This document shows, one piece after another, positions 197 through 4,021 of a DNA stretch of 4,214 nt. Each line of letters starts with the position of its first letter. The first letter of the stretch is position 1. Source of the DNA: Naegleria gruberi (lineage: Eukaryota); NCBI GenBank assembly GCA_000004985.1, contig GG739190.1; one strand, 5' to 3'. The notes beneath the pieces were generated by a model, which was not told the DNA's origin, made no database searches, and saw nothing but the letters and a program-made list of their open reading frames with translations. The translations under genes and the position numbers were made by a program.

Positions 197-204
197 TAAT
201 CTAG
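197..204. repeat. Left copy of putative 8-bp target-site duplication, TAATCTAG
   Basis: Identical 8-mer in direct orientation immediately outside both TIRs (197..204 and 4014..4021). The identity does not extend to a 9th base on either side. Confidence 0.7.
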
Positions 205-218
205 CGGGGGGAGACAAC
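205..218 (+). repeat. Left terminal inverted repeat, CGGGGGGAGACAAC
   Basis: Exact reverse complement of 4000..4013 (GTTGTCTCCCCCCG), 14/14 matches. Similarity stops at the inner edge: 219/3999 and 220/3998 mismatch. Confidence 0.8.
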
Positions 219-285
219 CTGACTTCAACTACCACTAGGGAGGGTCATTTCCCGCCTTTCCTTTTTTGTCATATGATCAACAACT

Positions 286-292
286 AAATATT
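286..292 (+). promoter_or_regulatory. TATA-like element TAAATAT about 165 bp upstream of the ATG, inside the transposon 5' region
   Basis: Sequence only. Position is compatible with an internal element promoter. There is no transcript evidence. Confidence 0.15.
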
Positions 293-440
293 CAAATAAA
301 AACATCAGATTACCAACAACCAACAACAAAACACACCAAACCATGATCCTCTCCGCAGTTACTGAACATCTAACTCATGTTCGATTCATATTTTGGTTGT
401 TCGAGTATTTGTTGGAACTGAATCAACGTTAAAAACAATT

Positions 441-456
441 CAATCAATAAAAAAAA
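441..456 (+). promoter_or_regulatory. A-rich translation-initiation context (CAATCAATAAAAAAAAA-ATGG), yeast/eukaryote-like Kozak leader
   Basis: A run of 9 A precedes the ATG and a G follows at +4. There is no Shine-Dalgarno-like purine-rich GGAGG upstream. Confidence 0.3.
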
Positions 457-3400
457 ATGGGTCGATCATCATTCAAAGTTGAAATAAATAAAAATTGTTT
501 GGGGATTACTGATTATGATAAATTCGATATATTATTGGATGTTGAAAAGAACAAAGTAATGGATGGAAGTGGGAAAATAGCTGGCACTATTGTAAATAAA
601 TGTTTACGTTCTATTGACTGCACAAAAATTCACAACAAAAACAGAAAATCTGACTCGTGCGTGAAGTGTTGTGATTTGAAAAGCAAGCTAGATACAAATC
701 TCCAAAAAGTTCATAAAATTCTAGAAAATCCAAATACTCTTCCTCCTTATTCATCCATAATACCATATCCTCAAGTCATGTATCAACTATTACGTGAAAC
801 TACGAAAGCTTTGGGAAAGTGTGAGCCCAGTAACTTTGAAACAAAAATAATAGAATCATTAAGGAAGGCCAAAGCACAATATGAGATTAATTCAAGTCTT
901 AAATCAAAACATATTAAAATGAACAAAGATCCAACAATTGAAAATAAGCAATGTGAGCAAGAATTACTAGAAAATGAGCAAGAATTAATTGAAAATGAGC
1001 AAGAATTCATTGAAAAAGATACTGATCAATCCAAACAATCCAAAAAAACTGATAGATACACACACATTCCACCTCAAAAACAAAATCCATTATCATCCAA
1101 AGGTTTTGGAAAATTCGAGGAATGTTTTTTTGTAAAATTTCTTCATAACCAATTAGAAAATTTCACTCTACCCCCAAATGCTCACAGATATGATGAAGTA
1201 ATGAAACGGTATTGGTTTCTTGGGAGGTATTTTAGTGGAAAGCAATTTTTCAATCAACTATCCGGTAAAAAGAATCAACAAATTCCTTGTAATTGGAGAA
1301 CAAATCTGCAATACAACATAGTGATGCCAAGTAACAACACCATGAAAAACTGGTTACCAAAAGGAAGCATTGGAATATGTACATATTCTGATTCAGTATT
1401 CAATAGTTTAGAACCTAATTCGTGTAAAGAAGTATGTGTTTCAATGGATGGAATGAAGGTTCTGAAAAAATTGGAAAGAATGAACGGTCAAGTAATTGGA
1501 ACATCTCAAAAAATTAATGTGAAAACACCACCATCCAACCATAATATCAACCTTAGTGAAGTTACTGAAGAAATGGTACTTTTTAATGTTAATGCAATAG
1601 ATAACAGTTGGCATTGTCCTTTAGGATGGTTTGCTATATCTTCTGCTGACAAAATTAATGACTTCATTTACGAAAAAATGATATTATGTAATGAAAAATT
1701 AAAAGGTTACTCTCTAAAAATGGTGTGTGGATGTGCAGATGGTGAGGCAGATGCTAAAAATTTGCAGAAACTTTTACGAGAGAAAATTGATCCAAATTTC
1801 ATATTTGTGACTGATTATGTACATAATTTCAAGAATCAAAGAAATTGTTTGTTCAATGGGACAATTTTGAAAAACATTAATATGTCAACACTTATTAAGT
1901 TGATGAATAATTATCCACATCTATATGAAATGCTGGATAAAGAAGAAGTCTCACCCTCAGATATTATGGCTATTAATCCATGTCTTGAACTGACCTCTCC
2001 AAAAGTAGTAGAAGTGTTAAAATCACTCAGAAATAATGATGCTGCCATTTTGGCTAAATATTTAGAAACTATTCGAGAAGTGTATGATGTCATTAATGAT
2101 AATGATGTTGACATTGTTGATAAATTAGAATTATGTAAAGAATATTTTTCAAATATTCCTGCCAAGCAATATCCTGAAAAAACTAGAAACATTTGTCTTC
2201 ATACTATTGAAGGATTTCAATATCTTGCAAATACCTATTCAAATTTTAGACCAAGTTGTATAACAACTAATTATAATGAGCTAATGTTTTCCATTATTAG
2301 AAAGAGGTATCCACGAGCCACAGCAAAGCAATTCTGTTCATCAATATTAATTGCCTTCTATATTTTCCTATTAACATCTTGCTCAGAAGAGGTGAGAGGA
2401 TTTTCTCTTCCTGAAACGGAATGGACTGAGCATTATAGAGGAATGAAACTTAAAATTAAGTCTCTCCCAAATCTGAAAAATATTGATCCGAATTTTGTAG
2501 AATTAACTAAAGATGAAATTAATGCATTAGATAAATGGTTGACTAAGGTAAATCATAATATTGAAGGATATGTACGTAAAAGTACTCTCAGAATGGAATC
2601 ATGTGCCCCTAAAAAATTATTCCTTTGCTGCCCAATTAATGGATGTGATCGTCAAAAACCTTATATTGTGAAAGGCCAATTCAAGAATCATCTATTATCC
2701 AAGCACTCTGATAAAATAACTAGTGAACAACAAGCTATATCTGTAGTTAGAGAATTAGAGTGCAAACATTTTGAATTACAGTTTTTAGCTGATTCTGAAG
2801 TACGAAAGAACAGTGTTAACCTTAATAAGCAAGAAAGAGAAAAAATATGTGAAGAATCTTCTATATCCAATAAGTCACAAGACACAATGAGTACTCTTAC
2901 ACAACTGTCAATAAGGGACTCCAGTACGTGTGATGGTTCGACACGTACAACCATTCAACAACCAACCAATCAAATAATTACTCCTCAACTTAATAATAGT
3001 AATGGTATTGAAAAATATTTGGTTTCAAAGTATTTGAATGAAACTAAAATTCACATAGATATTAGCAATGATGATATTGTAGAGAGCGTAATATCTGTGA
3101 AAAATAATGAAAATTATCATGTTGTTGTCTTAGATTTAGAAACTACTGGGCTAATGCCAAATGACCATGAAATAGTGCAAGTGGGAATGATTTCATTAAT
3201 TTCCAAATGTGCATTTTCAATATATATTAAACCAAAATACCATGATTGGAGTAGTCATGCTAAAAAATTACATGTTGACAAAATGAATGAAATCAATAAT
3301 GGAAAACAATTAGACCAAATTATCATTCCAATCCACAATTATTTAACAAAGAACAATAGTTGTACTGCTGTTGTATTGGTACATTCAACATCATTGGACA

Positions 3401-3864
3401 GAAATTTCCTCATGAAAGCATTGACAAAACATGGCTTACCTATTGATAGGTACATGATAGTGAATACTATAAGCGAAGAATTCTTCCCTAAGCAGAAACT
3501 TGAAACACTGTTCAACCAAGTGAACAAGCCAATGAATACAACAACAAAAGATATAATAGGTGTTGCACATGATGCAGCCTTTGATACGGCCATGTTGTTT
3601 GATATAATCAAACACAAATTTGGAGATAATATTGATGGTGTTTTAGAAGCATGTATGTGCTTTCATGGTCGTCTGTGTGGTGATAAAAAGAGGAAGAAAC
3701 CTAATCATGATATTAACACAAAGAGAAAGAAGAAGAAGACAGAACCCAATACAAGTTCCGATCATTTTTTTAAACAATCACAAATAATAGAATTTATTCC
3801 CTGGACACCAGATACCAACAAAAATACAACCCGACAAAGGAAAACGAGAAGAAACAAAAAGTGA
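457..3864 (+). CDS. Transposase-like multidomain protein (1135 aa) with zinc-finger modules and a C-terminal DnaQ/epsilon-like DEDDh 3'-5' exonuclease domain
   Basis: Uninterrupted 3,408-nt ORF. An in-frame TAA at 448..450 lies just upstream of the first ATG, which sits in the A-rich context AAAAAAAAATGG. The ORF ends with TGA at 3862..3864. It lies entirely between the TIRs. Recognisable exonuclease motifs and zinc-finger spacing are present (see domain features). Confidence 0.85.
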   Translation: MGRSSFKVEINKNCLGITDYDKFDILLDVEKNKVMDGSGKIAGTIVNKCLRSIDCTKIHNKNRKSDSCVKCCDLKSKLDTNLQKVHKILENPNTLPPYSSIIPYPQVMYQLLRETTKALGKCEPSNFETKIIESLRKAKAQYEINSSLKSKHIKMNKDPTIENKQCEQELLENEQELIENEQEFIEKDTDQSKQSKKTDRYTHIPPQKQNPLSSKGFGKFEECFFVKFLHNQLENFTLPPNAHRYDEVMKRYWFLGRYFSGKQFFNQLSGKKNQQIPCNWRTNLQYNIVMPSNNTMKNWLPKGSIGICTYSDSVFNSLEPNSCKEVCVSMDGMKVLKKLERMNGQVIGTSQKINVKTPPSNHNINLSEVTEEMVLFNVNAIDNSWHCPLGWFAISSADKINDFIYEKMILCNEKLKGYSLKMVCGCADGEADAKNLQKLLREKIDPNFIFVTDYVHNFKNQRNCLFNGTILKNINMSTLIKLMNNYPHLYEMLDKEEVSPSDIMAINPCLELTSPKVVEVLKSLRNNDAAILAKYLETIREVYDVINDNDVDIVDKLELCKEYFSNIPAKQYPEKTRNICLHTIEGFQYLANTYSNFRPSCITTNYNELMFSIIRKRYPRATAKQFCSSILIAFYIFLLTSCSEEVRGFSLPETEWTEHYRGMKLKIKSLPNLKNIDPNFVELTKDEINALDKWLTKVNHNIEGYVRKSTLRMESCAPKKLFLCCPINGCDRQKPYIVKGQFKNHLLSKHSDKITSEQQAISVVRELECKHFELQFLADSEVRKNSVNLNKQEREKICEESSISNKSQDTMSTLTQLSIRDSSTCDGSTRTTIQQPTNQIITPQLNNSNGIEKYLVSKYLNETKIHIDISNDDIVESVISVKNNENYHVVVLDLETTGLMPNDHEIVQVGMISLISKCAFSIYIKPKYHDWSSHAKKLHVDKMNEINNGKQLDQIIIPIHNYLTKNNSCTAVVLVHSTSLDRNFLMKALTKHGLPIDRYMIVNTISEEFFPKQKLETLFNQVNKPMNTTTKDIIGVAHDAAFDTAMLFDIIKHKFGDNIDGVLEACMCFHGRLCGDKKRKKPNHDINTKRKKKKTEPNTSSDHFFKQSQIIEFIPWTPDTNKNTTRQRKTRRNKK
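601..672 (+). other. N-terminal Cys/His cluster (C49-x5-C55-x3-H59-x8-C68-x2-C71-C72); possible zinc-binding or DNA-binding module
   Basis: Spacing read directly from the translation CLRSIDCTKIHNKNRKSDSCVKCC. It does not match the THAP or BED consensus exactly. Confidence 0.3.
955..1017 (+). repeat. 3 x 21-bp in-frame tandem repeat encoding acidic heptads EQELLEN / EQELIEN / EQEFIEK
   Basis: The units are 955..975 GAGCAAGAATTACTAGAAAAT, 976..996 GAGCAAGAATTAATTGAAAAT and 997..1017 GAGCAAGAATTCATTGAAAAA. A partial fourth unit lies upstream at about 934..954. Confidence 0.7.
1414..1956 (+). other. Candidate RNase H-like (DDE-type) transposase catalytic region containing a [C/D]xxH motif (D453-Y-V-H456, nt 1813..1824)
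   Basis: Candidate first-D contexts are VCVSMD331GMK (nt 1447..1449) and NAID382NSW (nt 1600..1602). The candidate second D is CAD428GEAD432 (nt 1738..1752). About 25 aa downstream lies KIDPNFIFVTDYVHNFKN, which resembles the [C/D]xxH block of hAT/Mutator/P transposases; Mutator-like elements (MULEs) have FPN...CxxHxxxN here. The third acidic residue is not identifiable by eye. Confidence 0.35.
2626..2706 (+). other. C2H2-like zinc finger (C724/C725-x4-C730-x14-H745-x4-H750)
   Basis: Translation is LCCPINGCDRQKPYIVKGQFKNHLLSKH. This is Cys2-His2 spacing with a slightly long 14-residue spacer, where the canonical spacer is 12. Confidence 0.5.
2857..3006 (+). other. S/T/N/Q-rich low-complexity linker (aa about 801..850), likely disordered
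   Basis: Translation is SSISNKSQDTMSTLTQLSIRDSSTCDGSTRTTIQQPTNQIITPQLNNSNG. It separates the zinc finger from the exonuclease domain. Confidence 0.5.
3109..3636 (+). other. DnaQ/epsilon-like DEDDh 3'-5' exonuclease domain (aa about 885..1060); catalytic residues D893, E895, D981, H1038, D1043
   Basis: Motif I is HVVVLD893LE895TTGLMP (nt 3133..3141). Motif II is VVLVH976STSLD981RNFL (nt 3382..3399). Motif III is GVAH1038DAAFD1043TAMLF (nt 3568..3585). Spacing is I to II 88 aa and II to III 62 aa, matching E. coli DnaQ (about 91 and 64). The segment FSIYIKPKYH also resembles DnaQ FHVYLKPDRL. Confidence 0.8.
3685..3861 (+). other. Basic C-terminal tail with bipartite NLS-like clusters (KKRKK-x7-KRKKKK and RQRKTRRNKK)
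   Basis: Translation is DKKRKKPNHDINTKRKKKKTEP ... TRQRKTRRNKK. Two K/R clusters lie at nt 3685..3741 and a terminal basic decamer at 3832..3861. Confidence 0.45.
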
Positions 3865-3999
3865 TTTTCTATGTAATATACTTGTTGTTTTACTAGGGTG
3901 GTACATTCTGTTTCATGTATTGTGGTGTTGTTCACTATGAAGCAAATATTTTTTAGTCCCGATTAGGAAGGTTTCTCAGAGTACCCTCTGTTAGCACGA

Positions 4000-4013
4000 G
4001 TTGTCTCCCCCCG
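4000..4013 (+). repeat. Right terminal inverted repeat, GTTGTCTCCCCCCG
   Basis: Exact reverse complement of 205..218. Confidence 0.8.
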
Positions 4014-4021
4014 TAATCTAG
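4014..4021. repeat. Right copy of putative 8-bp target-site duplication, TAATCTAG
   Basis: See left copy; 8/8 identical and in direct orientation. Confidence 0.7.

Follow-up and report, generated by a model that had tools for sequence, protein, structure and literature searches.

The stretch of Naegleria gruberi DNA analyzed here (the window; 4,214 bp, contig GG739190.1 of assembly GCA_000004985.1) is a whole unplaced scaffold, made up of a 3,809-bp element (205..4013) and about 200 bp of flanking DNA on each side. The element carries one single-exon open reading frame (ORF; 457..3864, plus strand) that begins with ATG, has no internal stop, and encodes a transposase-exonuclease fusion of 1135 amino acids (aa). 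We consider it probable that the window holds one cut-and-paste (class II) transposon of the P superfamily, recently inserted and potentially autonomous. The original prediction, made from the letters alone, had described a young, potentially autonomous element at 457 to 3864. These coordinates are correct for the ORF, whose 1135 codons are indeed free of stops and frameshifts, and too narrow for the element as a whole, the span of which is set by the positions of its terminal inverted repeats (TIRs) and target site duplications (TSDs). The ORF translates to exactly the sequence of N. gruberi NAEGRDRAFT_54887 (XP_002668233.1), a GenBank entry of 2010 labeled “predicted protein.”

At the left end, one TSD copy, TAATCTAG (197..204, no strand), abuts the left TIR, CGGGGGGAGACAAC (205..218, plus strand). 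The left TIR is complementary at 14 of 14 positions to the right TIR, GTTGTCTCCCCCCG (4000..4013, minus strand), its exact reverse complement, and the second TSD copy (4014..4021, no strand) adjoins the right TIR and agrees with the first at 8 of 8 positions. The perfect identity of both pairs of repeats had been claimed from the outset and was confirmed. When every inverted-repeat pair was scored as the length of the perfect TIR plus that of the abutting perfect direct repeat, the window reached 22, compared with a mean of 13.7 and a maximum of 18 in 300 first-order Markov shuffles, none of which (0/300) attained that value. Independent support for 205 and 4013 as the true ends came from a metagenomic family (P0002/P0012; contigs L011 to L013), whose 19-bp termini, CGGGGGTGGAGATCGCCAG, are recognizably homologous to CGGGGGGAGACAAC and in which contigs with different flanks begin to diverge exactly at the outer terminus. 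The insertion site is noncoding AT-rich DNA; in the reconstructed empty site, the longest ORF is at most 58 codons. No tRNA or Rfam family was found in the window.

Between the TIRs and the gene lie a 5' subterminal untranslated region (219..456, plus strand), containing CTACCACTAGGGAGGGTC at 229 to 246, and a 3' subterminal untranslated region (3865..3999, plus strand), containing GTACCCTCTG at 3981 to 3990, which matches the left AGGGAGGGT-type motif in inverted orientation. The AGGGAGGGT part of the left region (237 to 245) is the terminal motif of a sister element in Naegleria lovaniensis, and CTACCACTAG, also in the left region, is common to the window and the P0002/P0012 family. These 5' motifs may represent a transposase-binding site or a promoter. 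A search of the window for additional subterminal repeats common to both ends returned nothing convincing.

Motifs of the AGGGAGGGT type occur at 229 to 246 and 3981 to 3992 in the window, at 5882 to 5897 in locus L001, and at approximately 884 to 910 in L009, a decayed metagenomic contig. The motif is 32 nt inside the left end in the window, yet it forms the very terminus (CAGGGAGGGTGAGCC) of the N. lovaniensis element. In L009, homology to the window ends just past the right-hand motif, and the outer 14-bp TIR is missing. This placement suggests that either the cleavage point shifted relative to a conserved binding motif or ends were lost. We also considered a nested arrangement, in which the true element would span 236 to 3990 inside another small TIR element, on the basis of TAGGGAGGGT at 236 to 245, its counterpart ending at 3990, and the L009 homology that stops at about 3992. 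The nested arrangement was rejected because the 8 bp flanking 236 and 3990 are not duplicated (ACTACCAC versus TTAGCACG), because the outer TIR bears a perfect TSD, and because the metagenomic family, whose flanks diverge exactly at the outer terminus, retains both the outer CGGGGG..GAGA end and the CTACCACTAG next to it.

A P-type transposase core

The transposase core (aa 215 to 674; 1099..2478, plus strand) comprises helix-turn-helix (HTH)-like helices, a split RNase H fold, and an alpha-helical insertion domain. A single-sequence search of the PDB returned nothing for this part of the protein, and full-length profiles of 4 and 28 sequences were swamped by exonuclease matches, so a trimmed alignment of the core from 11 sequences was needed. 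Searched against the whole PDB, the resulting profile gave a single significant match, the Drosophila P transposase (6P5A; E = 1.6e-5). Aligned to that enzyme, D331 (nt 1447 to 1449), D428 (1738 to 1740), and E608 (2278 to 2280), which are invariant in the 11 aligned relatives, fall on its catalytic residues D230, D303, and E531. The alignment also places DYVHNFKNQRN, which carries the DxxH motif (D453/H456), on SDTPHLIKLVRN and the ENFFS.IR-type consensus of the third motif on VEHFFGSMR. The Pfam family TNP-like_RNaseH_N was matched by 18 of 28 relatives (best E = 1.3e-13), and none of the 28 matched hAT or Mutator models.

Structural modeling pointed in the same direction. An AlphaFold2 (AF2) model of aa 215 to 674, built from the core alignment, was confident (pLDDT, 81.7; pTM, 0.81), and its top Foldseek matches were 6p5a_A (E = 7.8e-13) and 6pe2_A, with TM scores of 0.63 to 0.65 over about 470 columns (472 for 6P5A). 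The runners-up, Hermes (hAT) and Transib, had E values near 1e-4 and TM scores of 0.25 to 0.34. The alpha-helical insertion is modeled between D428 and E608 and has no match to the Pfam GBD model. A full-length AF2 model from 4 sequences had a pLDDT of 41 and was not used for the fold search. Together with the 8-bp TSD, the core profile, the catalytic alignment, and the AF2/Foldseek comparison identify this as a P superfamily core.

Members of the P superfamily (P, 1360/ProtoP, Galileo, Pdre, and the domesticated THAP9) resemble the window element in having a homologous DDE RNase H core with an alpha-helical insertion and a preceding HTH, in the D/D/E residues and the DxxH...K..RN and ENFFS.IR-type motifs, and in combining an 8-bp TSD with short TIRs, distinct subterminal motifs, and one transposase gene. 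The window protein differs in having another type of Cys-rich N terminus in place of THAP, an extra C2H2-like finger, and, at the C terminus, a DEDDh 3'-5' exonuclease of roughly 170 aa with no counterpart in P, Galileo, or THAP9. In addition, the gene is intronless, the TIR is 14 bp rather than the 31 bp of P, and the host is a heterolobosean amoeba, not an animal. The THAP domain is a typical feature of P elements, not one that defines them catalytically, and the element is for this reason filed as a variant of P.

The fused exonuclease and the rest of the protein

The second catalytic domain is a predicted 3'-5' exonuclease of the DEDDh (DnaQ/RNase T) type at aa 888 to 1055 (3118..3621, plus strand). 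Its motifs are VVLDLETTG (D893, E895), HSTSLDRNF (D981), and AHDAAFD (H1038, D1043), so that Exo I (DxE), Exo II (D), and Exo III (Hx4D) are all present, and the earlier statement that the exonuclease catalytic residues are intact holds for each of the five. These residues are invariant in all four homologues of the Naegleria group, which have 37 to 48% protein identity. Pfam RNase_T aligns to aa 890 to 1047 with 24.7 bits (cutoff, 24), and profile searches matched the exonuclease domain of PolC (2p1j; E = 7e-23 with the 28-sequence profile), DnaQ epsilon, and TREX1/2. The solved structures nearest to the domain are the proofreading domains of PolC and DnaQ together with TREX1/2, and the corresponding activity is predicted.

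The DEDDh domain has been kept in frame with the transposase across very long evolutionary distances. Its invariance, and the recurrence of the same architecture at about 20% identity, including in transcripts of Soliformovum irregulare, suggest that the exonuclease is a selected part of the gene. Within the P-element cut-and-paste reaction, the transposase binds the ends, pairs them in a synapse, excises the element, and joins its 3'-OH ends to the target 8 bp apart; the nontransferred strand is cut 17 nt inside the element, which leaves 17-nt 3' single-stranded extensions (PMC7776569). Since P-type cleavage leaves such extensions, a role in end processing is most plausible for the exonuclease, and processing of 3' ends has also been proposed for the DEDD exonucleases of KolobokD (PMC9587614) and Dada (PMC3706591).

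By homology, we propose that the protein binds the CGGGG-type termini and the subterminal motifs, pairs the ends, excises the element, and would then insert the 3'-OH ends 8 bp apart in the target, the 8-bp stagger itself being visible in the TSDs. The fused exonuclease could trim 3' single-stranded tails, either donor-flank overhangs or the 3' flaps of gap repair. The domains of the protein follow one another in the order Cys-rich N terminus, a helical repeat, HTH and split RNase H, a C2H2-like finger, the DEDDh exonuclease, and a basic tail.

The remaining parts of the protein vary in how widely they are conserved. The Cys-rich N-terminal region (C14 ... C49, C55, C68, C71; 496..672, plus strand) is a putative DNA-binding domain that would bind zinc, at the position of THAP in the P transposase. 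No Pfam family, THAP included, matches it at E ≤ 1, and its CxGI...C...CxxC pattern recurs in homologues and in distant relatives. A C2H2-like zinc finger (C725, C730, H745, H750; 2629..2706, plus strand) lies between the core and the exonuclease and is invariant in four close homologues; the pattern CP...C...G....H....H is kept in the consensus of 28 distant relatives, even at about 20% identity. The finger has the spacing C-x4-C-x14-H-x4-H and is followed by a conserved ECKHF motif, at a place where the P transposase has an acidic C-terminal domain.

Two other parts are more local. Three in-frame 21-bp tandem repeats (954..1019, plus strand) encode EQELLEN, EQELIEN, and EQEFIEK and are predicted to be helical and coiled-coil-like. 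They correspond to a gap in the alignment of homologues and are also present in a second N. gruberi copy. The repeats lie at about the position of the leucine zipper of the P transposase and look like a recent lineage-specific expansion. The Lys/Arg-rich C-terminal tail (aa 1070 to 1135; 3664..3861, plus strand), which in the translation reads KKRKK, KRKKKK, and RQRKTRRNKK, is specific to the N. gruberi copy among the homologues and is a candidate nuclear localization signal.

Relatives, age, and autonomy

An exhaustive HMMER search of 1.84 billion representative sequences recovered only 60 relatives. A word-indexed profile search found no homologues past the first three, and a scan of viral contigs found nothing. 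The closest relatives are from N. lovaniensis (37% identity by BLASTP) and two metagenomic families, and the distant ones (about 20 to 27% identity) often carry the same pair of domains, TNP-like and RNase_T. The sister elements, C9374_013644 of N. lovaniensis with its paralogues and the metagenomic P0002/P0012 family, share the domain order at 36 to 37% identity (BLASTP), the motifs CGGGGG..GAGA and AGGGAGGGT, and an 8-bp TSD, the last of these shown for the N. lovaniensis family. The N. lovaniensis element, whose protein has 1010 aa, differs from that of the window in having TIRs of about 110 to 120 bp that start at CAGGGAGGGTGAGCC; it has no outer CGGGGGG terminus, no heptad repeat, and no basic tail.

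Seven N. lovaniensis loci were fetched, each in a different gene neighborhood and each with a 3,411-bp element ending in CAGGGAGGGTGAGCC. Six of the seven copies are 100% identical, and the seventh differs at 2 positions. Perfect 8-bp TSDs, all different, flank six of the seven, including five of the six identical copies (ATATTCTC, TCTGTGTT, ATTCTTGT, CAGAAGAA, ATTGTTTA, and GAGAACTC). The copy that lacks a TSD, L006 (PYSW02000079.1; element at 1382 to 4792), has the flanks ACAAAGTG and GTTACACG and could have arisen by recombination between two copies or by an adjacent deletion. The family is clearly mobile, a very recently active transposon that makes P-type 8-bp duplications.

The family appears to have decayed in the pathogen Naegleria fowleri, whereas N. 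lovaniensis keeps it intact and N. gruberi has at least one intact copy. The N. fowleri gene models (P0015, P0018, P0019, and P0087) are truncated, at 162 to 626 aa, and the best N. fowleri match is 67% identical to aa 398 to 553 of the window protein. Farther afield, the exonuclease-bearing P0077 and P0043 families from JGI/ENA metagenomes (L016 to L021) encode proteins of 1144 to 1201 aa with TNP-like and RNase_T domains and have TACGGGG... termini, with P0077 ending in TACGGGGTGCTGAC. A long poly(A)/(GA)n tract directly follows their stop codon, and no fewer than 12 near-identical variants of the protein occur. In the P0077 family, the 8-bp sequence GCAGTTTT is common to the left flank of one contig and the right flank of another, a TSD read across contigs; in L016, a Ty3/gypsy-type retroelement lies directly downstream. 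Contigs L011 to L013 carry the same 1020-aa gene, and L011 and L012 agree in the right flank but not in the left. The assemblies of this multicopy element are therefore chimeric, and because flanks look like chimeras of different copies, TSDs could not be read from single metagenomic contigs (L011 to L013, L017, and L019). In Soliformovum irregulare, EukProt transcripts (P0037 and P0075) encode proteins of 1812 to 2481 aa with a long Pro-rich N terminus, a TNP-like core, and RNase_T, which shows that the fusion occurs, and is transcribed, in an amoebozoan too.

The open ORF is informative about the age of the N. gruberi copy. Of 10,215 possible single substitutions in it, 551 (5.4%) create a stop, so that an unconstrained copy would remain stop free with a probability of 0.16 at 1% divergence and 0.025 at 2%, indels not yet counted; this puts neutral decay below about 2%. 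The identity of the TIRs and TSDs is weak evidence of age by itself, because agreement at all 22 positions still has a probability of 0.64 at 1% divergence, 0.41 at 2%, and 0.10 at 5% and because TIR arms need not start out identical. In both catalytic domains, the window copy keeps every position that is invariant across the family, and no conserved catalytic position is damaged by a mutation.

The copy in the window is not the only one in the genome, and the refuting conditions set out with the original prediction did not apply. A second gene model, NAEGRDRAFT_76989, lies on a scaffold of its own (1,820 bp) and is identical at 175 of 176 aa over aa 35 to 210. After aa 210, it continues into a tail that is encoded in no frame of the window, which indicates a separate copy, probably disrupted, and not a duplicate of the window scaffold. 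For contrast, the 1,134-bp metagenomic contig L009, which carries a relative with 90 to 94% identity, has the look of an old copy of the family, with three large internal deletions, nine small indels, and a pN/pS of 0.8. Taken with the N. lovaniensis copies, the second copy, the stop estimate, and the intact invariant positions support, without proving, the view that the window copy is a recent insertion, coding competent and with matched ends, and hence potentially autonomous.

Weighing the alternatives and implications

Several observations weigh against a recent, potentially autonomous P-superfamily element. The match of the window protein to TNP-like_RNaseH_N (aa 321 to 433; 22.9 to 24.0 bits) is just below the cutoff of 24.6. 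THAP gave no Pfam match at E ≤ 1 in the window protein and is absent from the Pfam families matched by its 28 relatives. The residue aligned to D528, a GTP contact in the P transposase, is an asparagine (N605), which makes GTP dependence uncertain. The perfect TIR is short, at 14 bp, and a processive 3'-5' exonuclease would do harm if it attacked the 3'-OH ends of the transposon that encodes it. In N. gruberi, just one additional copy was found, partial and probably disrupted, and two metagenome scans, one by protein alignment and one with the 22-nt left terminus, detected no further copy. The family may thus be nearly extinct or of very low copy number in N. gruberi, and the two tiny unplaced scaffolds could in part reflect haplotype or assembly redundancy. 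The activity of the window copy itself is inferred from its sequence.

One alternative is that the element arrived or last moved recently, which would account for its clean ORF and ends, and is now effectively dead or solitary in N. gruberi, for example through silencing, a missing host factor, or a subtle inactivating missense change. We regard this as unlikely, although it deserves more weight than the other alternatives. Only two N. gruberi gene models represent the family in a collection of 15 billion proteins, the second of them partial and diverging after aa 210; the metagenome scans were negative, N. fowleri has fragments only, and the heptad repeat and basic tail of the N. gruberi protein are lineage-specific additions. 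Counts of gene models, however, underestimate copy number, as ORFs of transposable elements often go unannotated, and the catalytic and family-invariant positions are all intact in the window; the N. lovaniensis sister, for its part, is clearly an element that is still active or was so until very recently. Domestication, by which the gene would be a host transposase-exonuclease comparable to THAP9 and no longer mobile, is largely refuted and in our judgment very improbable. A long intact ORF annotated as an ordinary predicted protein, with catalytic residues conserved across Naegleria species at 37 to 48% identity, would fit a host gene. A host gene would not explain perfect TIRs with an abutting TSD, a location on an unplaced mini-scaffold in noncoding DNA, or N. 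lovaniensis homologues that are multicopy, identical, set in unrelated neighborhoods with different TSDs, and devoid of shared synteny.

We see hardly any chance that the element belongs to another superfamily with which it shares features. Kolobok was tested directly because it is the one superfamily already reported to include a DEDDh exonuclease (KolobokD); it also occurs in Naegleria (PMC9587614). KolobokD resembles the window element in being a DDE cut-and-paste transposon of eukaryotes with its own DEDDh (DnaQ-like) exonuclease, for which the same role, the degradation or trimming of the 3' ends of transposition intermediates, has been proposed (PMC9587614). However, Kolobok has 4-bp TTAA TSDs, RR...YY termini, and a core with internal zinc fingers that matches PF20700, as opposed to the 8-bp non-TTAA TSDs and P-type core seen here. 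All five Kolobok transposase cores taken from Data S5 of PMC9587614 matched PF20700 (Mutator), four at E values of 2e-7 to 1.5e-52 and one weakly, below the cutoff. None of the five matched TNP-like, and none of the 28 relatives of the window protein matched PF20700. Kolobok and KolobokD were excluded on the basis of the TSDs and this Pfam pattern. In favor of hAT, that superfamily also makes 8-bp TSDs, and the N. lovaniensis termini begin with CAGGG, which is YARNG-like. It was excluded because no hAT dimerization or other hAT Pfam domain is present and because the model resembles the P transposase (TM, 0.63) far more than Hermes (TM, 0.25 to 0.34); the ENFFS.IR-type third motif also aligns to the VEHFFGSMR of P. 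A P-superfamily transposon thus remains the reading that we favor.

Youth and potential autonomy are fairly ordinary traits in a transposon copy, and the transposase-exonuclease architecture of the window element is of more interest. The 8-bp TSD and the P-type core indicate that the exonuclease was apparently acquired independently of KolobokD. Dada elements (Laccaria, Ectocarpus) offer another comparison, in that their authors suggest that the exonuclease processes cleaved 3' ends (PMC3706591). Dada targets small-RNA genes, whereas the eight TSD sequences seen here show no obvious target preference, and the exonuclease of the window protein is of the DEDDh type and appended C-terminally. In the searchable literature, DEDD exonucleases are reported in Kolobok and Dada and none in the P superfamily. 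P-type elements in Naegleria are likewise not described there; Repbase holds N. gruberi entries (Kolobok-1_NaeGru), and prior curation is possible.

We speculate, tentatively and with more doubt than confidence, that these elements form an old, undescribed protist branch of the P superfamily, in which THAP was replaced and the exonuclease became permanently fused and an integral catalytic step of transposition. Such a branch would extend over Heterolobosea (N. gruberi, N. lovaniensis, and N. fowleri), the amoebozoan Soliformovum, and several organisms known from environmental metagenomes. In these elements the exonuclease would remove the long single-stranded 3' tails that P-type cleavage characteristically leaves, or it would edit the donor or target junctions. 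If so, the N. lovaniensis element, with its six identical copies, would be currently active, and members of the branch would be natural machines combining a transposase with an end-processing nuclease.

P elements are a classic model of transposition, the P superfamily has been characterized mainly in animals, and the handling of the 17-nt 3' overhangs of P elements is still attributed to host repair. A P-type transposase joined to a DEDDh exonuclease, from Naegleria to an amoebozoan, would be the third independent recruitment of a DnaQ-like exonuclease by DDE transposons, after Dada and KolobokD, and would suggest a recurrent selective advantage in an element's processing its own 3' ends. For annotation, the analysis shows that NAEGRDRAFT_54887 and the N. 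lovaniensis paralogues, now listed as “exonuclease domain-containing protein,” are transposon genes, not host genes. The N. lovaniensis element, together with an intact copy in the culturable model amoeba N. gruberi, offers an apparently active system in which to probe the role of the nuclease and, possibly, a genetic tool for Naegleria.

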